In this document: positions 5,946-34,093 of the stretch, one piece after another | Numbering within the stretch: position 1 is the first letter of the stretch | How the letters are laid out: every line of letters begins with the position of its first letter | DNA from: a virus | Length of the DNA stretch: 39,837 bases | UHGV virus genome: UHGV-0025829 | Strand: one strand, 5' to 3' | The notes under the pieces: model-generated | What the model was told of the DNA's origin: nothing | The model's input: only the letters and a program-made list of their open reading frames with translations | Databases searched by the model: none | Made by a program: the position numbers and the translations under genes

Positions 5946-6026
5946 AACTTGTTACCTCGGTCTGTTACCGTTGAGGTAATGATTATGCGTATTTGGTTTG
6001 GTGTCAATAGATATGAGTTAAAAAAA

Positions 6027-6041
6027 TTACCCTTAAGGTAA
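6027..6041. promoter_or_regulatory. Operator palindrome TTACCCTTAAGGTAA (left operator candidate)
   Basis: Perfect TTACC/GGTAA inverted repeat in the leader of the leftward early operon. Confidence 0.6.
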
Positions 6042-6098: not shown

Positions 6099-6683
6099 TT
6101 ATTGTTTGTTTTTTTCGTTCTGGTTGATGACAAATTCAATGTAACTTTCGATCTTTGCTTTCTCGGTTTCGGGTAACAATGCGTAGCGCGAGCGGTCATA
6201 GTTGATGGTCGCAGGGTCGTGCGGGTGAATCAGTAATTCATAGCCGTGACGCCCGAATGCGGATGCAACATTCTCCAGGGTGGAAATGGAAACGCTGACC
6301 TCATTGTTTAACAGGCGGCTGATTGTCACCTGGGCGACGCCGGATGCGCGGTGAAGTTTTCCCTGTGTTGAAAGGTCGCGGCTTTCGCTCATCCAGCGTT
6401 CCAGGTTGTGAGCCGCCAGCTGACCTATATCGCTCGGGCCGACAGGCTGAAAACCTTCCTGAGAAAGCGAGCGATCGATATCAAGCCAGTTACGGGGTTT
6501 ATTGGCGGCAGCTTCAATTTTTCGCGCAACCTGGTCGCCGATAACCTTCTTGCCAAGAGCCCAGCGGTTTACCAGATTTGCCTGAGTTCCAAGTTTTTCT
6601 GCCATCCGCGTCTGAACACCATTGAATTCACGGTCGATCAAGTCGTTGAGATTTTGCCTGCGGACGTCCTGGATACTTTTCAT
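6099..6683 (-). CDS. Immunity repressor (CI-like), two HTH domains, no recognisable S24 peptidase domain
   Basis: Divergent from the Cro-like gene with operators between; HTH segments MAEKLGTQANLVNRWALG and ASGVAQVTISRLLNNEVSVSISTL; no Ser-Lys autocleavage motifs seen. Confidence 0.7.
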   Translation of the reverse strand: MKSIQDVRRQNLNDLIDREFNGVQTRMAEKLGTQANLVNRWALGKKVIGDQVARKIEAAANKPRNWLDIDRSLSQEGFQPVGPSDIGQLAAHNLERWMSESRDLSTQGKLHRASGVAQVTISRLLNNEVSVSISTLENVASAFGRHGYELLIHPHDPATINYDRSRYALLPETEKAKIESYIEFVINQNEKNKQ

Positions 6684-6738: not shown

Positions 6739-6801
6739 TTACCCAACAGGTAAATGCACCCCATAGGTAACTATCCTTGATTTTTGTTACCTTATGGGTG
6801 A
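6739..6801. promoter_or_regulatory. Right operator cluster: three sites (6739..6753 perfect, 6756..6770 and 6787..6801 half-degenerate) in the divergent promoter region
   Basis: TTACCCAACAGGTAA, GCACCCCATAGGTAA and TTACCTTATGGGTGA between repressor start and Cro-like start. Confidence 0.65.
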
Positions 6802-6837
6802 ATATTTATTATCTGAAATAAATATCAGGCAATAGCT

Positions 6838-7068
6838 ATGAGCGATAACGGACATTTCGATTTCAAAAAGCACTGGCTTGCACTTACTCCGGATGAGCGT
6901 GAAGCCTTCGCACAGGAAGCCGGAACGACGAGTCACTATATCCAGACTCACTTAACAGGTAAGCGCAAAATGCCAGGTAAGGTATTGATGAATGGGCTTT
7001 TTAAAGCCTGTAAAACAAGACAATGGCTGCGCTCAAAAGCAGAACTGGCATACTTCTTCTACTCATGA
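6838..7068 (+). CDS. Cro-like small HTH regulator
   Basis: 76 aa, divergent from repressor, HTH-like segment REAFAQEAGTTSHYIQTHLTGKR. Confidence 0.55.
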   Translation: MSDNGHFDFKKHWLALTPDEREAFAQEAGTTSHYIQTHLTGKRKMPGKVLMNGLFKACKTRQWLRSKAELAYFFYS

Positions 7069-7089
7069 TATCCAGCCACAACCCTCTGT

Positions 7090-7113
7090 AGACCGCCATC
7101 CGGCGGTCTTTTC
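7090..7113 (+). terminator. Rho-independent terminator (tR1-like) after the Cro-like gene
   Basis: Stem AGACCGCC/GGCGGTCT followed by TTTTC. Confidence 0.65.
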
Positions 7114-7123
7114 ATATCTATTC

Positions 7124-7138
7124 GTACCTCAAAGGTAA
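7124..7138. promoter_or_regulatory. Operator-type palindrome GTACCTCAAAGGTAA
   Basis: Motif copy directly after the terminator. Confidence 0.5.
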
Positions 7139-9069: not shown

Positions 9070-9146
9070 TTACCTGATGGGTAACAAAATATTCTAAACT
9101 CTATTGATTTCGTGTCTTATGTGGTTTTTAATTACCTCAGAGGTAA
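9070..9146. promoter_or_regulatory. Two operator palindromes (9070..9084 TTACCTGATGGGTAA; 9132..9146 TTACCTCAGAGGTAA)
   Basis: Both in the 117-bp gap before the 9150 gene; the second overlaps its SD. Confidence 0.55.
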
Positions 9147-11850: not shown

Positions 11851-12072
11851 GAATGTGTTATGCCAAAAATACGCTACGACCTTGAAGATATGAGAGATAA
11901 CTCAGCAAATTTTCCGAAAGAGGTTAAATTTCTCATGCATAAGTATGGTTGCGCCAGGAGGGATATAGTTATCGACAGTCACCACCCTTGCGGCGAGGAT
12001 GTAATTTTCATTCGCGGTAAATGGGAAGGGTATCTTGACGAGAGTTTTTACGATGAATTTGATGGACTTTGA
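11839..12072 (+). CDS. Hypothetical protein (start uncertain: GTG 11839 or ATG 11860)
   Basis: ORF ends 26 bp before terminator; GTG start would coincide with the GTGACATGTCAC palindrome. Confidence 0.4.
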   Translation: MTCHECVMPKIRYDLEDMRDNSANFPKEVKFLMHKYGCARRDIVIDSHHPCGEDVIFIRGKWEGYLDESFYDEFDGL

Positions 12073-12077
12073 ATACT

Positions 12078-12103
12078 GCCGCCAACTATGGCGGCTTTAT
12101 TTT
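12078..12103 (+). terminator. Rho-independent terminator separating early genes from the terminase operon
   Basis: Stem GCCGCC/GGCGGC, loop AACTAT, then TTTATTTT. Confidence 0.65.
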
Positions 12104-12114
12104 GCATGGTACTA

Positions 12115-12129
12115 TTACCATAACGGTAA
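12115..12129. promoter_or_regulatory. Operator palindrome TTACCATAACGGTAA upstream of terminase small subunit (plus degenerate copy 12133..12147)
   Basis: Perfect half-sites 21 bp before the terS ATG. Confidence 0.55.
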
Positions 12130-12149
12130 CAATTACCAGGGTGGTTATT

Positions 12150-12743
12150 ATGCCTGCTGAACCTAAAACCTATAAACGCAAATCAACGCAATTTAAGCCG
12201 CTCACAGCAATGCAGGAGGCTTATTGCCAGTCATACATCAAAACGCCTGAAAACCAGACTCAGGCAGCGATTAACGCAGGATTCTCCCCAAATACAGCGG
12301 CAGTTAAAGCCAGCGTCATGATGCGCGATGAACGCATTCAAAAACGGATTGCCGAGTTGATGGAAGAGCGCAACAAACGAATGCGCGTCAGTGCTGATTA
12401 CGTTCTCATGCGCCTGGTGGAGATCGACCAGATGGACGTGATTGATATCCTCAACGACGATGGGAGTCTTAAGCCAATCCGCGAGTGGCCGAAAATATGG
12501 CGCACTACGCTTAGCGGCTTTGATCTGTCATCGACCATCATGAACATGAACGAGGACTCGATAGAGACAATCCTCAAAAAAATTAAATGGCCTGACAAGG
12601 TGAAGAACCTAGAACTGATTGGTAAGCACGTCGACGTCAACGCATTTAAAGAACGCCTGGATGTTAATGTGAATGTGACAATTGCTGATCGCATAGCAGC
12701 AGCCAGGAAGAGACTGAAAGAACGTCAGGATGGCAATCAGTGA
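12150..12743 (+). CDS. Terminase small subunit
   Basis: Immediately upstream of and overlapping the large subunit; LTAMQEAYCQSYIKTPENQTQAAINAGFSP resembles the Terminase_2 family. Confidence 0.75.
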   Translation: MPAEPKTYKRKSTQFKPLTAMQEAYCQSYIKTPENQTQAAINAGFSPNTAAVKASVMMRDERIQKRIAELMEERNKRMRVSADYVLMRLVEIDQMDVIDILNDDGSLKPIREWPKIWRTTLSGFDLSSTIMNMNEDSIETILKKIKWPDKVKNLELIGKHVDVNAFKERLDVNVNVTIADRIAAARKRLKERQDGNQ

Positions 12744-14215
12744 CAGATGCAGCGTTATCTCCTGAAGAGCAGTTGATCGAGGATATTGCAGGGTTTACTC
12801 ACGATCCGCTTGGTTATGCCCTCTATGCGTTCCCGTGGGGGGAAGAGGGGACTGAACTGGCACATGCTACCGGACCACGTCAGTGGCAGGCCGATGCGTT
12901 CCGAGAGATACGTGATCACCTGCAGAATCCCGAGACGCGCTATCAGCCGCTTATGCTGGCACGTGCTTCGGGTCACGGTATTGGTAAATCAGCACTCATC
13001 TCAATGTTGATCAACTGGGGCATGTCCACTTGCGAGGATTGTAAGGTCGTGGTGACCGCCAACACCGACAACCAGCTACGAACGAAGACCTGGCCGGAAA
13101 TTATCAAGTGGTCAAACCTTGCTATCACGAAAGACTGGTTTACCTGTACCGCTACCGCGATGTACAGCAATGACCCTGGGCACGACAAGCGGTGGCGAGC
13201 TGACGCAATCCCTTGGTCTGAGCACAACACTGAGGCATTCGCCGGACTACACAACGAGCGCAAACGCATCATCGTGGTATTCGATGAAGCGTCGAACATT
13301 GCCGATCTGGTGTGGGAGGTAGCAGAGGGTGCGCTGACGGACGAAGACACCGAAATCATCTGGGTGGCGTTCGGGAACCCGACGCGTAACACCGGGCGTT
13401 TCCGTGAATGTTTCCGCAAGTACAAACACCGCTGGAAGTGTGCGCAGATTGACAGCCGGACGGTGGAAGGCACTAACAAACAGCAGTTGCAGAAATGGGT
13501 TGATGACTACGGGGAAGACAGCGACTTCGTTAAAATCCGTGTGCGCGGCATATTCCCTGATGCATCTGAATTGCAGTTTATCCCTACCGGTCTTACTGAT
13601 GAGGCAATGAAACGGGTGGTAACCGCTGCGCAGGTTGCACATGCTCCGGTGATAATCGGCGTTGACCCGGCATACTCAGGCGTTGATGACGCGGTGATAT
13701 ACCTGCGGCAGGGGCTGCACAGTAAGGTGCTGTGGACTGGCAACAAGACTACTGACGATCTGATTATGGCGAAGCGTATCGCTGACTTTGAAGACCAGTA
13801 CCAGGCTGACGCAGTGTTCATCGACTTCGGTTACGGAACTGGTCTGAAGTCAATCGGTGACGGCTGGGGTCGTACATGGCAACTTGTTCCGTTCGGTGGC
13901 GCGTCTACTGACCCGCAGATGCTCAATAAGCGCGGGGAGATGTTCAACTCATGCAAGACATGGCTGAGGCTGGGCGGCATGCTTGATGACCAGGAAACAG
14001 CGGACGACCTGTCGGCGGCAGAGTACAAAGTTCGAGTGGACGGTAAAATCGTTATCGAACCGAAGGAAGATATCAAGGAGCGGCTTGGGCGTTCTCCTGG
14101 TAAAGGCGATGCGCTATTGCTGACGTTTGCTTTCCCTGTGTCGAAGCGTCTGCGAATTCCAGGTCAGCAGAACCAGCAAGGCAAGGCCATTACAGATTAC
14201 GATCCCTATGCTTAA
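12740..14215 (+). CDS. Terminase large subunit
   Basis: GTG start overlapping terS stop; ATPase Walker A-like ARASGHGIGKSALI; 491 aa. Confidence 0.85.
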   Translation: MTDAALSPEEQLIEDIAGFTHDPLGYALYAFPWGEEGTELAHATGPRQWQADAFREIRDHLQNPETRYQPLMLARASGHGIGKSALISMLINWGMSTCEDCKVVVTANTDNQLRTKTWPEIIKWSNLAITKDWFTCTATAMYSNDPGHDKRWRADAIPWSEHNTEAFAGLHNERKRIIVVFDEASNIADLVWEVAEGALTDEDTEIIWVAFGNPTRNTGRFRECFRKYKHRWKCAQIDSRTVEGTNKQQLQKWVDDYGEDSDFVKIRVRGIFPDASELQFIPTGLTDEAMKRVVTAAQVAHAPVIIGVDPAYSGVDDAVIYLRQGLHSKVLWTGNKTTDDLIMAKRIADFEDQYQADAVFIDFGYGTGLKSIGDGWGRTWQLVPFGGASTDPQMLNKRGEMFNSCKTWLRLGGMLDDQETADDLSAAEYKVRVDGKIVIEPKEDIKERLGRSPGKGDALLLTFAFPVSKRLRIPGQQNQQGKAITDYDPYA

Positions 14216-14265
14216 TCCGCTGGTGGGGATAATGTCGTTGATATCCTCTGGTGAGGATAAAACAA

Positions 14266-14285
14266 AGCCAGTTCATAGGCTGGCT
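14266..14285. terminator. Bidirectional terminator hairpin between convergent terL and minus-strand ORF
   Basis: Stem AGCCAG/CTGGCT flanked by T-rich sequence on both strands. Confidence 0.5.
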
Positions 14286-14289
14286 GTTT

Positions 14290-14301
14290 GTGACATGTCA
14301 C
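14290..14301. repeat. 12-bp perfect palindrome GTGACATGTCAC (copy 2 of 3)
   Basis: Exact match; lies between ORF stop and terminator. Confidence 0.7.
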
Positions 14302-14305
14302 GGTG

Positions 14306-14677
14306 TTATTGCTCGCTTAACTTCTGCTTCAGCAAGTAACCTTCAAGCATCCAGATTTTGTTTACAGCATTCTGCCGGGCAATCTTCCGACCAATTTCTG
14401 CATCAAAGTTTTCCTGGCTTGCACAGGCGCTCTCTCCGGTGACGGTGAAGCCGTTGCGCAGCACCAGGACGCAGAACGTCAGCAGAGAAAGTGATTCGTG
14501 CGGCTGGTAGTTTACCTCTCCGCCAGTATGTTTCGCTTTTATGGCTTTGCCAAAGGCACCATCCTCTGCTGTGAAATATGCCTCCTGAGCAATAATGCTT
14601 TCGATATGGTCTGGCGTAACGCGCGGAGCAGTTTTGCCTTTCTCAACGATTTCTTTTTCGATTTGCTGGTCGTTCAT
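14306..14677 (-). CDS. Hypothetical moron protein
   Basis: 123 aa on the opposite strand to the flanking late genes; AAGGTGA SD; downstream of the tRNA on the same strand. Confidence 0.55.
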   Translation of the reverse strand: MNDQQIEKEIVEKGKTAPRVTPDHIESIIAQEAYFTAEDGAFGKAIKAKHTGGEVNYQPHESLSLLTFCVLVLRNGFTVTGESACASQENFDAEIGRKIARQNAVNKIWMLEGYLLKQKLSEQ

Positions 14678-14875
14678 AATCTCACCTTAAAAAAATGCCC
14701 GGCGAACCGGGCGAACTGGAAGCAATGAGTTATGCCTTCCGTGGCTGTACTGGTTTACAGCATGAAGTCATCGCAATGGCGTCCTGCTGTAAAAAGGGCG
14801 GTGATAGTCCTTCAAGGGAAACCATCACCGCCAAGCCCCTGGAACTTCTGGCATCACGGTCCTTAGGCGTGATTC

Positions 14876-14952
14876 TGGCGTGGCATGCAGGATTCGAACC
14901 TGCGACCAACCGCTTAGAAGGCGGTTGCTCTGTCCAACTGAGCTAATGCCAC
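14876..14952 (-). tRNA. tRNA-Arg (anticodon UCU)
   Basis: Reverse complement folds as a cloverleaf: acceptor GTGGCAT/ATGCCAC, anticodon loop CTTCTAA, T-loop GGTTCGAATCC, 3-prime GCCA. Confidence 0.85.
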
Positions 14953-15274
14953 AACGCTGAGAGCACTTAGCCTGTTAAGGCACCACACTTTGTCGCGGCT
15001 CCATAAATGCTCTCATCGTTGTACCCTCGTCTCTTCCGAGGTGTCACACCGAATCGCCGGGATGGTGAATCCCCGTGCGCGGAATAAAACCGCTTGACTT
15101 GCACATTCCGGCTACCTGGTTCGTTTGCCCGAGCAAGGGAGGGTGCCACTTAAACGTACCCAGACCGCTATCGGCGCATGTGCCATACGCCGTACTGCTC
15201 AAAATAAAAGCTCACTCCACCTGTTCAATTTAACGACAAGCCAGTCAGGTTAGTAACCGTAATGAACTCTTTGC

Positions 15275-15289
15275 TTACCTGAAAGGTAA
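15275..15289. promoter_or_regulatory. Operator palindrome TTACCTGAAAGGTAA upstream of the virion operon
   Basis: Perfect motif copy about 90 bp before the 15380 start. Confidence 0.55.
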
Positions 15290-15379
15290 TAATTCGTGCG
15301 TTAAATGTCAACCATCTACGATAAATAAATCATATATGGTTAAATTGGTAATAATTTAATTGCGTACGGAGTCATTGAT

Positions 15380-15586
15380 ATGTGCATGGGTAGCTCACCA
15401 TCAGTGCCTGCAACACCAGAAGTTCAGGCAGCACCACAGGAGCAGGATGCCGCCGTTGTTGATGCCCGCGATGAAGAAACTCGTCGCCGTCGCGCTGCTG
15501 CTGGTCGTAGTTCTACGCTGCTTACCGGTTCTCAGGGCGACACATCAACCGCTAATACCAGCGGTAAAACGCTGCTTGGTCAGTAA
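15380..15586 (+). CDS. Small low-complexity virion protein, T7 gp6.7-like
   Basis: Starts MC...; Ser/Thr/Gly-rich; sits directly before the portal gene, as gp6.7 does in T7 (recalled). Confidence 0.4.
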   Translation: MCMGSSPSVPATPEVQAAPQEQDAAVVDARDEETRRRRAAAGRSSTLLTGSQGDTSTANTSGKTLLGQ

Positions 15587-15600
15587 CCGGAGTCATTGAA

Positions 15601-17280
15601 ATGGCGGAAACAACTAAAGAGCGATTGAACAAACAGTTCGCACAACTTGAAAGCGAGCGTCAGTCGTTCGAGCCGCACTGGCGCGAGTTGAGTGATTACA
15701 TCAACCCGCGTGGTTCCCGCTTTCTGACTTCTGAGGTCAACCGTAACGATCGACGCAATACGCGCATTATTGATTCGACCGGGACTATGGCGGCGCGTAC
15801 TCTCGCCAGCGGCATGATGTCTGGTATCACAAGCCCCGCCCGTCCGTGGTTTCGCCTGGCTACGCCAGATCCTGAAATGATGGATTATGGCCCTGTTAAG
15901 TTGTGGCTTGAAGCGGTGCAGAACCGCATGAACGATATGTTCAATAAGTCGAATCTCTACCAGTCTCTTCCGCAGTTATACGGAAGCCTCGGCACATACA
16001 GCACTGGTGCAATGGCGGTGCTGGAGGATGACGAGGACATCATTCGCACAATGCCATTCCCGATAGGCAGTTACTACCTGGCTAACTCACCTCGTGGCAG
16101 TGTGGACACCTGTTTTCGCAAGTTCTCTATGACTGTTCGTCAGCTTGTTCAGGAGTTCGGGCTAAATAACGTCAGCGAATCCGTAAAAAGCATGTGGGAA
16201 AGCGGCACCTACGAGAAGTGGATTGAAGTGATGCATTCGGTTTACCCGAACATTGACCGCGATACATCGAAGCTGGATAGCAAGAACAAGCCATTCAAAT
16301 CGGTTTATTACGAGGTTGGTGGCGATAACGACAAGTTGTTGCGTGAGTCCGGATTCGATGAGTTTCCAATTATGGCTCCGCGCTGGGAAGTTAACGGCGA
16401 AGATGTTTATGGATCATCATGCCCGGGTATGCTGGCGCTTGGACCTGTTAAGGCATTGCAGCTTCTCCAGAAGCGCAAGTCGCAGTTGATTGATAAAGCC
16501 ACCAATCCGCCGATGGTTGCTCCGACTTCCCTCAAGAATCAGCGCGCCTCCCTTCTTCCTGGCGACATCACGTATATCGATCAGATTACTGGTCAGGATG
16601 GTTTCAGGCCTGCTTATCTGGTTAACCCCAGTACAGCAGATCTGGTGGCAGACATTCAGGACACTCGCCAAATCATTAACAGCGCCTACTTTGTCGATCT
16701 GTTCATGATGTTGCATAACATCAATACCCGCTCGATGCCTGTTGAAGCAGTGATCGAAATGAAAGAAGAAAAACTTCTGATGTTGGGGCCGGTTCTGGAG
16801 CGTCTGAACGACGAATGTCTTAATCCTCTCATTGACCGCGCTTTCTCGATGATGGTGCGTAAAAACATGCTGCCACCACCGCCTGACGCGATGGAAGGTA
16901 TGCCCCTGAAGGTCGAATACATTTCCGTCATGGCTCAGGCGCAGAAGTCTATCGGCCTGTCCAGTCTGGCATCCACGGTCAACTTCATTGGTCAACTTGC
17001 GCAAGCGAAACCAGAAGCTCTCGACAAACTCAACGTTGATCAGGCGATCGATGCATTCGCTGATATGTCCGGAGTGTCTCCAACCGTCATTGTTCCGCAG
17101 GAACAGGTTGAGCAGGCTCGCCAGCAACGGGCACAGCAGCAACAGCAGCAACAAATGATGGCGATGGGGATGGCGGCGGCACAGGGTGCCAAGACGCTAA
17201 GCGAAGCTAAAACTTCGGATCCGAGTGTTTTGTCAGCTATGGCGAATGCAGTTAGTGGTCAGGGTGGGCAATCACAATGA
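15601..17280 (+). CDS. Portal (head-to-tail connector) protein, T7 gp8-like
   Basis: 559 aa after terminase; Gln/Ala/Met-rich C-terminal tail (QQRAQQQQQQQMMAMGMAAAQGA) resembles the T7 gp8 C-terminus as recalled. Confidence 0.75.
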   Translation: MAETTKERLNKQFAQLESERQSFEPHWRELSDYINPRGSRFLTSEVNRNDRRNTRIIDSTGTMAARTLASGMMSGITSPARPWFRLATPDPEMMDYGPVKLWLEAVQNRMNDMFNKSNLYQSLPQLYGSLGTYSTGAMAVLEDDEDIIRTMPFPIGSYYLANSPRGSVDTCFRKFSMTVRQLVQEFGLNNVSESVKSMWESGTYEKWIEVMHSVYPNIDRDTSKLDSKNKPFKSVYYEVGGDNDKLLRESGFDEFPIMAPRWEVNGEDVYGSSCPGMLALGPVKALQLLQKRKSQLIDKATNPPMVAPTSLKNQRASLLPGDITYIDQITGQDGFRPAYLVNPSTADLVADIQDTRQIINSAYFVDLFMMLHNINTRSMPVEAVIEMKEEKLLMLGPVLERLNDECLNPLIDRAFSMMVRKNMLPPPPDAMEGMPLKVEYISVMAQAQKSIGLSSLASTVNFIGQLAQAKPEALDKLNVDQAIDAFADMSGVSPTVIVPQEQVEQARQQRAQQQQQQQMMAMGMAAAQGAKTLSEAKTSDPSVLSAMANAVSGQGGQSQ

Positions 17281-33098: not shown

Positions 33099-33810
33099 TC
33101 AGAAGAACCCAGCTTTGTCGTTGATGTACTCCGCGTGCGTCTGGATATCACGCAGGCATTTACTCACACCAACGATGTAGCAGAACATGGTGGTCAGTTC
33201 CGCCGCCGCGCCCGATACATCATGCCCGTCGTCCTGCAACTGATTCAGCAGATTCATCAGCAATGAGTTCTCCGTCAGGCCGAGAACACCAGACGGTGAA
33301 TGAATCAGACTGCGGTAGCCTGGCTTCAGTGGGGCACTGTAGGTTTTGTTCTCTATCTTCATTGCCTGTATTACTGCTGACGCCGTGGCGTTGGCTACCT
33401 GGTCGGCAACCATCTTTATGCGTTCTTCCTGCGGGAGCGAGTTTTTAATGTAACTTCCGGTGCGGCGGATCTGAGGAAGAACCTCACCTGTAACCCATTT
33501 ACGAAAGCGGTAGGGGATAGTGCCTGGTGTCACCGCATCGCGGCAGCGGAGGATCAGTGTGTAGAGGCCTGACTCGGAGATGATGTTGATCTCTTTTACT
33601 CGGCTGTCAAAAATTGCACGATGTTCATGCCCTATGTTGAACATAGACCTTTCATCATCATCCAGTTTTTCAAGTGATTGGGTGACGTTTTGGATACGCA
33701 GCGCACTACAAACGTCTTGGGCTACAAACCATGGTTGGCCATCGATAATGATGGAACGGATAGGGTTAACAGATTCAAATTTGAAGATGGCAGTTTGAGC
33801 ATTAGCCATG
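33099..33810 (-). CDS. Antirepressor (Bro-N / Ant-like N-terminal domain plus C-terminal domain)
   Basis: FKFESVNPIRSIIIDGQPWFVAQDVCSALRIQNVTQSLEKLDDDE matches the Bro-N fold pattern; ATG at 33810 with GGAGAT SD; C-terminus paralogous to the 34125..34382 product. Confidence 0.7.
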
Positions 33811-33827
33811 GTGGTTATCTCCACTTA

Positions 33828-33841: not shown

Positions 33842-33963
33842 CACCGCAACGCCAATTACTGGTGGTGAACTGGACAAGGTTGGCGTACCGGCCTAAGTGG
33901 TACCGGCGTCCTTTCGGACCCCTGCCCAGCCCACCATAATTCGGATATGGCTGTGCTTAACGC

Positions 33964-33988
33964 ATAAAAAAACCACGTCTGGCGTGGT
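33964..33988 (-). terminator. Rho-independent terminator inside the ant upstream region
   Basis: ACCACG-TCTGG-CGTGGT hairpin with T-run on the minus strand. Confidence 0.5.
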
Positions 33989-34078
33989 ATGCGCCACTTA
34001 GTAACTCGGGACGCCAATCCCGGCACTGGATTTTGCCAGTACCCGATTACTATGGCACAAGAGGAGTGCGATGTAAAT

Positions 34079-34093
34079 TTACCTCAAAGGTAA
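34079..34093. promoter_or_regulatory. Operator palindrome TTACCTCAAAGGTAA
   Basis: Perfect motif copy 32 bp downstream of the small antirepressor-paralog gene. Confidence 0.55.

Follow-up and report, generated by a model that had tools for sequence, protein, structure and literature searches.

The put RNA is about 70 nucleotides (nt) long, folds into two stem-loops and makes the RNA polymerase that transcribes it termination-resistant (PMC9378689), and some lambdoid phages that lack N may use a put-like RNA (PMC12315714). Acb4 (anti-CBASS 4; CBASS, cyclic-oligonucleotide-based antiphage signalling system) of phage SPO1 has been assigned to PF13876, which is thereby the Acb4 family, and is a tetrameric sponge for 3'3'-cyclic GMP-AMP (3'3'-cGAMP); all eight tested homologues bound 3'3'-cGAMP, and homologues from Gram-negative phages also bind 3'3'-cAA (PMC11722364, a preprint). 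Here, we analysed a unit on the minus strand of the virus genome UHGV-0025829, a stretch of 39,837 nt that is referred to as a whole as the window. The unit lies between the terminase and portal genes and carries a structured RNA, hereafter the element, followed by a tRNA-Arg(UCU), terminator-like hairpins and an open reading frame (ORF) of 123 amino acids (aa). A preliminary description, made from the sequence, had listed a tRNA, terminator-like hairpins and an ORF with a Shine-Dalgarno sequence at this location, all of which are present, the hairpins being three in number, and its view of a self-contained accessory unit on the opposite strand was borne out as well, with a promoter-like site and terminators of its own, all predicted. 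The DNA ahead of the tRNA had been taken for a 320-bp leader. This leader exists, but far from being a passive spacer it contains a conserved structured RNA, a module that is very widespread and lacks annotation. The likely promoter (-35 at 15311-15306, -10 at 15288-15283) was found just beyond the upper end of the region considered in that description. In the order of transcription, the features are as follows.

15275-15311, minus strand: promoter-like site, read from the sequence, with TTGACA (15311-15306), a 17-nt spacer and TACCTT (15288-15283)
15275-15289: perfect palindrome TTACCTGAAAGGTAA, the predicted repressor operator, overlapping the -10 sequence of this minus-strand promoter-like site
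15201-15228, minus strand: second, weaker promoter-like site, TTGAAC-16-TATTTT, with 8 of 12 consensus positions, below the scan threshold, ending 8 nt before helix P1
14953-15198, minus strand: the element, a structured RNA of ~245 nt (covariance model R1, 157 bits, E = 6e-45)
15198-15009, minus strand: 5' domain of the element
15192-15185 with 15179-15172, minus strand: helix P1
15168-15161 with 15118-15111, minus strand: helix P2
15116-15098, minus strand: invariant 19-mer GGUAGCCGGAAUGUGCAAG (as DNA, GGTAGCCGGAATGTGCAAG)
15073-15070 with 15062-15059, minus strand: helix P4
15067-15064 with 15050-15047, minus strand: pseudoknot of the P4 loop CACC with GGUG
15041-15037 with 15029-15025, minus strand: helix P5
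15021-15008 with 14965-14952, minus strand: closing helix P6, the last pair of which uses the first base of the tRNA
14876-14952, minus strand: tRNA-Arg(UCU) with an encoded CCA (ARAGORN, anticodon tct; Rfam RF00005)
14853-14873, minus strand: hairpin AUCACG-CCUAAGGAC-CGUGAU, just 3' of tRNA-Arg
14789-14832, minus strand: terminator T1, a 14-bp hairpin GGCGGUGAUGG...CUAUCACCGCC (stem 14832-14797) followed by CUUUUU (-22.8 kcal/mol, z = -3.35)
14752-14773, minus strand: block CGAUGAC.U...GCUGUAAACC in the spacer between T1 and T2, with 18 invariant positions in an alignment of five Uetakevirus-type relatives that carry different cargo
14712-14689, minus strand: terminator T2, GCCCGGUUCGCCGGGC (14712-14697) followed by A and seven U (-12.7 kcal/mol)
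14306-14677, minus strand: ORF of 123 aa with an ATG start and the Shine-Dalgarno sequence AAGGTGAG (14688-14681) 3 nt before the ATG
14285-14266, minus strand: terminator-like hairpin T3 behind the ORF, facing the end of the large terminase gene (terL), from a terminator scan and folding

Six helices of the element, one of them a pseudoknot, are backed by covariation. When P1, P2, P4, the pseudoknot and P5 were examined in 41 non-redundant members with a mutual identity below 90%, 97.5% of the pair cells were paired, compared to 27-49% in slid controls, and double-sided changes were seen at 12 pairs (82 cells), values that 0 of 500 shuffles reached. The closing helix P6, examined in 25 members, was 91% paired with six double-change pairs, and again 0 of 500 shuffles reached either the percentage paired or the covariation score. 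Many of the unpaired nucleotides are invariant. A protein-coding function of the element was rejected, as any given frame is open in at most 11 of the 41 members and the lengths of insertions and deletions are not multiples of three. Rfam 15 gave no match at E <= 10 for window positions 14953-15300 or for the copy in the prophage of strain UTI89, and at the gathering threshold the whole window matched tRNA, C4 and IsrK only, leaving the leader without a match. A text search of the literature for the conserved strings of the element, together with a keyword search for a described RNA, returned no relevant paper.

Other candidate pairings were dropped. A long-range pairing proposed by RNAalifold, in which the loop and 3' strand of helix P1 would pair with the 19-mer, involves columns that are all invariant, and single-base variants in three contigs (L164, L167 and L189) are uncompensated. 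The outer P2 pairs G31-C101 and C32-G100 are unsupported (G to A of the L161 type), the 8 nt by which the window copy complements T2 are not kept in relatives, and matches of the element with the C4-like RNA, the IsrK RNA or the downstream region are 7-8 nt long and not conserved. A boxA-like UGCUCUUU occurs in some members only, inside the base-paired strand of P6. Two loops, that of the variable hairpin P2a within P2 (window ~15140-15130) and that of T1 (~14820-14808), usually carry a UUCC/CCUU motif. It complements the GGAA within P5's invariant loop, GGAAGAG, and on this basis the loops may contact each other.

A distant-mode search with the leader yielded 92 phage records. The leader is about 70-83% identical, and its 3' two-thirds ~80% identical, to unannotated DNA in otherwise unrelated phages, including P1 (between trnI and ban, in the C1-controlled ban operon), P7, D6, mEp460, cdtI, Stx2c phages and Klebsiella phages, and in the lambdoid phages mEp460, cdtI and Stx2c the copies are located just downstream of a cI-type repressor gene. 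The 19-mer was present in at least 120 viral contigs, and a second scan seeded on another conserved block recovered the same family, with the 19-mer altered by single bases at most. Among 5426 complete Escherichia coli genomes, 2156 (~40%) contain the element, at 2928 places, 554 of which are on P1-like plasmids, and none of these 2928 places is annotated by PGAP. The ORFs annotated over the element in mEp460 (gp37), mEp390 (036) and BUCT709 are likely spurious. In species-representative genomes, the exact 19-mer was confined to Enterobacterales (Kosakonia, Citrobacter, Klebsiella, Escherichia, Phytobacter, Kluyvera, Enterobacter, Erwinia dacicola and others), save for two contigs (L145 and L157) from metagenome-assembled genomes of an Oscillospiraceae and a Bacillota member, which are likely contamination or mis-binned enterobacterial phage DNA. 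This confinement fits recognition of a conserved host machine.

The surroundings of the element vary. At 131 element loci, tRNA-Arg(UCU) is positioned directly 3' of the element in 29 and tRNA-Ile2 directly 5' of it, 14 nt upstream, in the 17 loci of the phage P1 type, while 85 have no tRNA. In at least 55 of the 131, a CI-type repressor gene (helix-turn-helix and Peptidase_S24 domains) lies immediately upstream on the same strand, at 80-140 nt, and early-left genes, for example yfdP, yfdQ (DUF2303) and yfdR, follow downstream, so that the element points into the early-left operon; the UTI89 prophage is typical, with a gap of 723 nt between the repressor gene and yfdP. This is the place taken by nutL and N in lambda, and by putL in HK022 and HK639, and no N-like gene was recognised among the first genes downstream of the element. 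Phage ST64B (L136, 27238-28052) has the layout of cI, a gap of 815 nt and a yfdP-like gene, with no copy of the element, and an uncharacterised, different leader may fill its role there.

Between P6 and T1, tRNA-Arg is found in 27 of 119 loci and a tRNA-shaped domain, predicted by folding and a few compensatory changes, in another 46. In the latter, GUUGUGGU/CCACAAC forms the closing helix, and there are two hairpins, one D-arm-like (loop AGGCUGAU) and one T-arm-like (loop AGAUCAGCA), the stem of the T-arm-like hairpin changing from CCGG/CCGG to CUGG/CCAG in a compensatory manner. A hairpin AUCACGCC..GGACCGUGAU is kept both behind tRNA-Arg and behind the tRNA-shaped domain of tRNA-less relatives. 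In members without a tRNA, such as the UTI89 prophage (L135, 3738-3875) and many other loci, tRNA-Arg is replaced at precisely its position by a four-way junction of tRNA shape, with D-like and T-like arms; its acceptor-like helix is GUUGUGGUG/UCACCACAAC, and the GUUG of this helix doubles as the 3' strand of P6, where it pairs with CAAC, so that the two helices compete.

The tRNA-Arg of the window, which adjoins P6 with zero spacer, is the sole tRNA that ARAGORN finds there, and the Rfam tRNA model scores it at 73.3 bits against a gathering score of 29, so the tRNA call in the preliminary description stands. It reads AGA, as stated there. In 42 window ORFs, taken as a crude set, AGA accounts for 6.0 and AGG for 4.8 of every 1000 codons. 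Both values are above the E. coli averages. AGA and AGG are concentrated in the internal-virion and tail genes and some early-region genes; the portal and capsid genes contain no AGA, and the 123-aa ORF contains neither codon, indicating that the tRNA does not serve this ORF. Codon supplementation is therefore plausible but modest, and the tRNA may equally mark the module for processing, or act as a reserve copy when defences target tRNAs. The RefSeq record of Escherichia phage phiV10 (NC_007804) has no tRNA annotated and carries, antisense to tRNA-Arg, a coding sequence for an 83-aa 'hypothetical protein', PhiV10p04 (phiV10 2001-2252, equivalent to window 14695-14946, plus strand), which is almost certainly spurious.

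T1 had been noted as a 9-bp hairpin at 14798-14836. The hairpin is there, but its stem comprises 14 bp (14832-14797), and the CUUUUU behind it makes it an intrinsic terminator, with the GC-rich hairpin, U-tract and compensatory conservation expected of one. At 82 of 119 loci, a T1-like motif (GCGGU..ACCGC..UUUU) is present 249-760 nt (median 285 nt) 3' of the 19-mer, compared with five matches elsewhere on the same strand in 1.06 Mb, and its stem variants ACCAG/CUGGU, GAUGG/CUAUC and GCCAG/CUGGC are compensatory. The terminator previously placed at 14700-14722 corresponds to T2, with GCCCGGUUCGCCGGGC at 14712-14697 and seven U. As described, it directly precedes the ORF, running straight into the Shine-Dalgarno sequence AAGGUGAG (14688-14681). 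Both T1 and T2 are conserved in relatives with compensatory changes, and the pair of T2 and Shine-Dalgarno sequence precedes Acb4-like, Tad2-like and other genes there. The UTI89 prophage likewise has a second long hairpin with a U-run between T1 and yfdP, mirroring T1-T2 of the window. Uetakevirus units and the lambdoid unit of UTI89 alike have a second terminator-like hairpin before the first ORF. T3 is probably bidirectional; the phiV10 record annotates a rho-independent terminator at its place on the plus strand. The number of terminators in the 1.7-kb region is not by itself above chance (three found versus 2.0 expected).

The promoter-like site carries its operator palindrome over the -10 sequence. 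The palindrome TTACCTNNNAGGTAA occurs 16 times in the window with up to two mismatches, versus 0.87 expected and 18-fold over shuffles, and clusters on both sides of the ORF at 6099-6683, which encodes a homologue of the SPC32H repressor (PDB 5d50, E = 4e-42). The 16 sites include those at 5965-6041, 6739-7138, 9070-9146, 12115, 15275, 33018, 34079 and 34459, and look like marks of all repressor-controlled promoters, including one ahead of the small terminase gene. The combination of TTGACA-17-TACCTT and palindrome was also found upstream of the element in four relatives (L004, L070, L077 and L182), and in members of the Uetakevirus type promoter and operator are situated 10-85 nt upstream of the element; the GenBank record of epsilon15 has a repressor site annotated at the homologous place. 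At the distance of the second, weaker promoter-like site, several relatives also have a promoter-like site, among them L039 and L119 (both TTGACA-18-TACATT) and L009. The overlap of the operator with the -10 sequence suggests that the lysogen probably keeps the unit repressed and that its expression comes early, and such early, repressor-controlled expression suits counter-defence genes and does not fit a 'moron', as the unit had been called. In another part of the window, a C4 antisense RNA (66 bits) and an IsrK-like RNA (63.5 bits) are found upstream of an ORF with a Bro-N domain (33858-34042 and 33099-33824, both on the minus strand), and a perfect operator palindrome (34079-34093) is located just upstream. 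The Bro-N-domain ORF probably encodes an antirepressor, and the region looks like an antirepressor control region of the P1 immI type.

The 123-aa ORF matched Pfam PF13876 (Phage_gp49_66) over profile positions 1-82 of 82 with E = 4e-35 and 120.5 bits, against a cut-off of 27. Its sole sequence match in the PDB was 9e4w, SPO1 Acb4 (E = 0.0065). An AlphaFold2 (AF2) model of the product, with a pLDDT (predicted local distance difference test) score of 85, has the fold of the Acb4 protomer, a three-stranded sheet flanked by helices and a long C-terminal helix, and in a Foldseek search of the PDB the top 13 matches of this model were all chains of 9e4w (probability 1.00, target-normalised template-modelling score 0.51-0.69), the next one having E > 0.1. 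The product keeps the ENF(N/D)xEIGR core and the three hydrophobic ligand contacts F48, F62 and I66. PADLOC returned no match for the ORF. Its assignment to the Acb4 family, as a new member of a known anti-defence family, is solid, and we consider the product a putative cyclic-dinucleotide sponge directed against CBASS.

Over positions 14200-15620, the window is ~96% identical to phiV10 and its relatives, and the phiV10 group belongs to Uetakevirus, the epsilon15-like temperate podoviruses. The neighbouring genes are as follows.

12069-12743, plus strand: small terminase (PF03592)
12740-14215, plus strand: large terminase (terL)
15380-15586, plus strand: gp3-like ORF of 68 aa
15601-17280, plus strand: T7-type portal (PF12236)

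A minus-strand unit between terL and portal gene is present in phiV10, epsilon15, SPN9TCW, Tyrion and Klebsiella phage ST512-KPC3phi13.3, and the cargo alone differs. The segment of tRNA, hairpin, T1, spacer, T2 and Shine-Dalgarno sequence is kept in the relatives whatever gene comes next. In ST512-KPC3phi13.3 and the viral contig L096 this gene is Tad2-like (PF11195, Thoeris anti-defence 2), and in further relatives the slot holds proteins without an assigned family. Phage Tyrion (L002, 2430-2700) has the element, a tRNA-shaped domain in the place of tRNA-Arg, T1 with a compensated stem, T2 and two cargo genes, the first without an assigned family and the second coding for a DUF551 protein. 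In epsilon15 (L134/L006, 2539-2727), the element has been cut to its first ~60 nt (helix P1 and the 5' strand of P2), the rest and the tRNA being lost, and T2 and the Acb4-like gene gp50 are retained. That two unrelated families of immune-signal sponges are found in one slot speaks for its use for counter-defence cargo. This argues that Uetakeviruses keep a terminator-guarded and, as we infer, repressor-controlled slot for swapped nucleotide-signal sponges, Acb4-like and Tad2-like, and makes the unassigned cargo genes good candidates for new counter-defence proteins. The term 'moron' thus applies in part: the unit is an accessory unit on the opposite strand within the block of structural genes, with its own promoter-like site and terminators and with swapped cargo, but it is not an insertion, since its framework is kept in all Uetakevirus relatives examined, and the expression from the prophage that the term implies is argued against by the perfect operator palindrome over the promoter -10, which points to repression in the lysogen.

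Taken together, the best explanation, to which we assign a probability of roughly 0.4, is that a temperate podovirus resembling phiV10 here carries an early counter-defence cassette controlled by the phage repressor, and that the element is a processive-antitermination RNA, put-like in action and not a relative of put. Transcription would start at a sigma-70-type promoter, the -10 of which is covered by a repressor operator, making it silent in the lysogen and active upon infection or induction. The first ~245 nt of the transcript would form the structured RNA of the conserved family, and this RNA would stay with, or modify, the transcribing RNA polymerase, which would then resist Rho over ~600 nt of untranslated RNA and pass the tandem intrinsic terminators T1 and T2. 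The action would resemble that of the HK022 put RNA, brought about by a larger RNA that is unrelated to put. The tRNA-Arg(UCU) would be excised, and RNase P, by cutting at the 5' end of the tRNA, would release the leader RNA's 3' end as well. Polymerases that read through would express the Acb4-family sponge, which would soak up the cyclic-dinucleotide signals of CBASS. What suggests antitermination at a distance is the combination of a position at the 5' end of an early transcript under repressor control, one or more dedicated terminators, an interchangeable 3' sequence and no recognised N. Since the 3' neighbour may be a tRNA, a tRNA-shaped domain or ban, any effect of the element on T1 and T2 must indeed be distant.

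Several observations weigh against this explanation. The copies of the phage P1 type have no T1 and are located directly ahead of the ban start codon. Within 700 nt, the enrichment of canonical short-loop terminators is only mild (1.06 versus 0.60 per kb), and a looser terminator scan gave 2.46 versus 1.80 per kb. Neither HK022 nor HK639 has a covariance-model match in its put region, and nhmmer gave no significant match. In the ORF product, three ligand contacts of SPO1 Acb4 are replaced (E49 by T, Y57 by A and T70 by I). The promoters, the function of the operator and the terminators are all predicted, and we infer repressor control in vivo, antitermination, RNase P processing and ligand binding by the sponge. 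Finally, a place between a transcription start or tRNA on one side and a tRNA or tRNA-like domain on the other gives the element defined ends, which suits a free-standing RNA at least equally well.

Such a free-standing RNA is the main rival, and we regard it as a doubtful yet serious one. The element would then be a non-coding RNA gene, its mature product of ~250 nt working in trans, for instance to bind or titrate a protein or RNA of the host, with a 5' end set by the transcription start (in phage P1, by processing of the upstream tRNA-Ile) and a 3' end set by RNase P at the tRNA or tRNA-shaped domain; T1 would be the terminator of the RNA operon, and the ORF would be reached by leaky read-through only. 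The tRNA-Arg or tRNA-shaped domain directly 3' of P6 (27 and 46 of 119 loci), the 17 loci of the P1 type with a tRNA 14 nt upstream, the tight linkage of T1 to the element, and the many invariant unpaired nucleotides, as for a binding surface, are all in keeping with this, and the window holds a relative of the C4 RNA of phages P1 and P7, which is matured by RNase P. However, in lambdoid phages the element and T1 are located between the early-left promoter region and all early-left genes, so that a pure stop at T1 would leave no obvious promoter for these genes, and the conserved expression platform of T2 and Shine-Dalgarno sequence ahead of the cargo argues that read-through is intended. As for a target, the complementarity to the C4 and IsrK RNAs and the downstream region is limited to the unconserved 7-8 nt mentioned above.

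The aptamer-like architecture of the element, with a conserved multi-helix core, a pseudoknot, invariant junction nucleotides and variable peripheral hairpins, and its position upstream of terminators would also suit a cis-regulatory RNA that senses a ligand or signal, like a riboswitch, and gates passage of T1 and T2 into early or counter-defence genes. This is unlikely, since no expression platform adjoins the element: 120-220 nt of tRNA or tRNA-shaped domain intervene before T1, and in phage P1 ban comes directly next. In addition, no conserved pairing that could alternate with T1 or T2 was found, and the downstream genes are functionally unrelated between contexts.

Phage tRNAs and other RNAs counter tRNA-cleaving and other defences, and the element could itself be a counter-defence factor at the RNA level, serving as decoy for, or inhibitor of, an immune sensor or nuclease of the host, encoded beside other counter-defence genes. 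That it heads a cassette with Acb4-like or Tad2-like cargo in Uetakevirus-type phages and would be expressed early speaks for this possibility, which we nevertheless rate as quite improbable, because the commonest context of the element is the head of a whole lambdoid early-left operon and not an anti-defence island, and because it has no similarity to a known anti-defence RNA or to any Rfam family. An ordinary moron, in which the tRNA supplies a rare codon, the ORF is a passenger, the leader serves as promoter spacing or processing sequence and the conservation reflects recent horizontal spread, would account for the AGA and AGG usage of the window, the unit's own promoter-like site and terminators and the near-identical copies in many E. 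coli phages, but is very improbable in view of the compensatory changes in six helices among members down to ~70% identity, which disfavour it, the presence of the element with unrelated flanks in unrelated phage types and in 2156 of 5426 E. coli genomes, the operator that overlaps the promoter, the absence of AGA and AGG from the ORF and of AGA from the portal and capsid genes, and the 85 of 131 loci without a tRNA.

Looking beyond the Uetakeviruses, we tentatively propose, though with more doubt than belief, that the structured RNA, the tRNA or tRNA-like processing domain and the dedicated terminator form a new three-part RNA module, an early antitermination or switch device that would act through a non-put fold on host RNA polymerase or another conserved enterobacterial machine. 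It would serve lambdoid phages without a recognised N, the ban operon of phage P1 and the counter-defence cassettes of Uetakeviruses. For annotation, the element would add a new RNA family, with ~2900 copies in 5426 complete E. coli genomes that are now blank or covered by spurious ORFs.

How does the unit compare with known systems? Its protein is linked to Acb4 of the Bacillus phage SPO1 by a match above the Pfam threshold, by 9e4w as the best fold match and by the core residues, but it is only ~23% identical, has an N-terminal extension of ~28 aa, and may differ in ligand specificity given the replaced contacts E49, Y57 and T70. With the C4 RNA of P1 and P7, and with MALAT1-mascRNA, the element shares a tRNA or tRNA-shaped domain that abuts the 3' end of a structured RNA, where RNase P would release the RNA; the difference is that processing of the element is predicted, and that its tRNA-shaped domain comes from folding and a few compensatory changes. 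With N and nut (boxA-boxB) of lambda, it has in common its location, next to cI where the early-left operon begins, and its presumed task, whereas no N-like gene was recognised downstream, and the boxA-like UGCUCUUU is restricted to some members and paired in P6.

A further parallel in position is put, which binds the zinc-binding domain of the RNA polymerase beta' subunit and acts in cis in processive antitermination (putL and putR of HK022, a putL-like site in HK639). Like put, the element lies just downstream of a repressor-controlled early promoter, with no recognised antiterminator of the N type and with terminators further down, it is found in the left operon only, as is put of HK639, and it would have to act at a distance. 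The sequences share short strings only: put stem I, ACGGCG...AUGCGUCG, resembles helix P1, and GGAAGAG recurs, but in another structural register. A 16-nt identity to HK022 falls inside the nun coding sequence and was dismissed as chance. With 190-245 nt and six helices including a pseudoknot, the element is about three times larger than put, and it is linked to a tRNA or tRNA-like domain and a conserved T1. This size and architecture, together with the negative covariance-model and nhmmer searches, led us to reject membership of the put family. To our knowledge, put is the only RNA-only solution for passing early terminators, and a rare one. If our explanation is correct, the element would be a second, larger and far more widespread RNA at the position of put, providing early antitermination without N in temperate enterobacterial phages.

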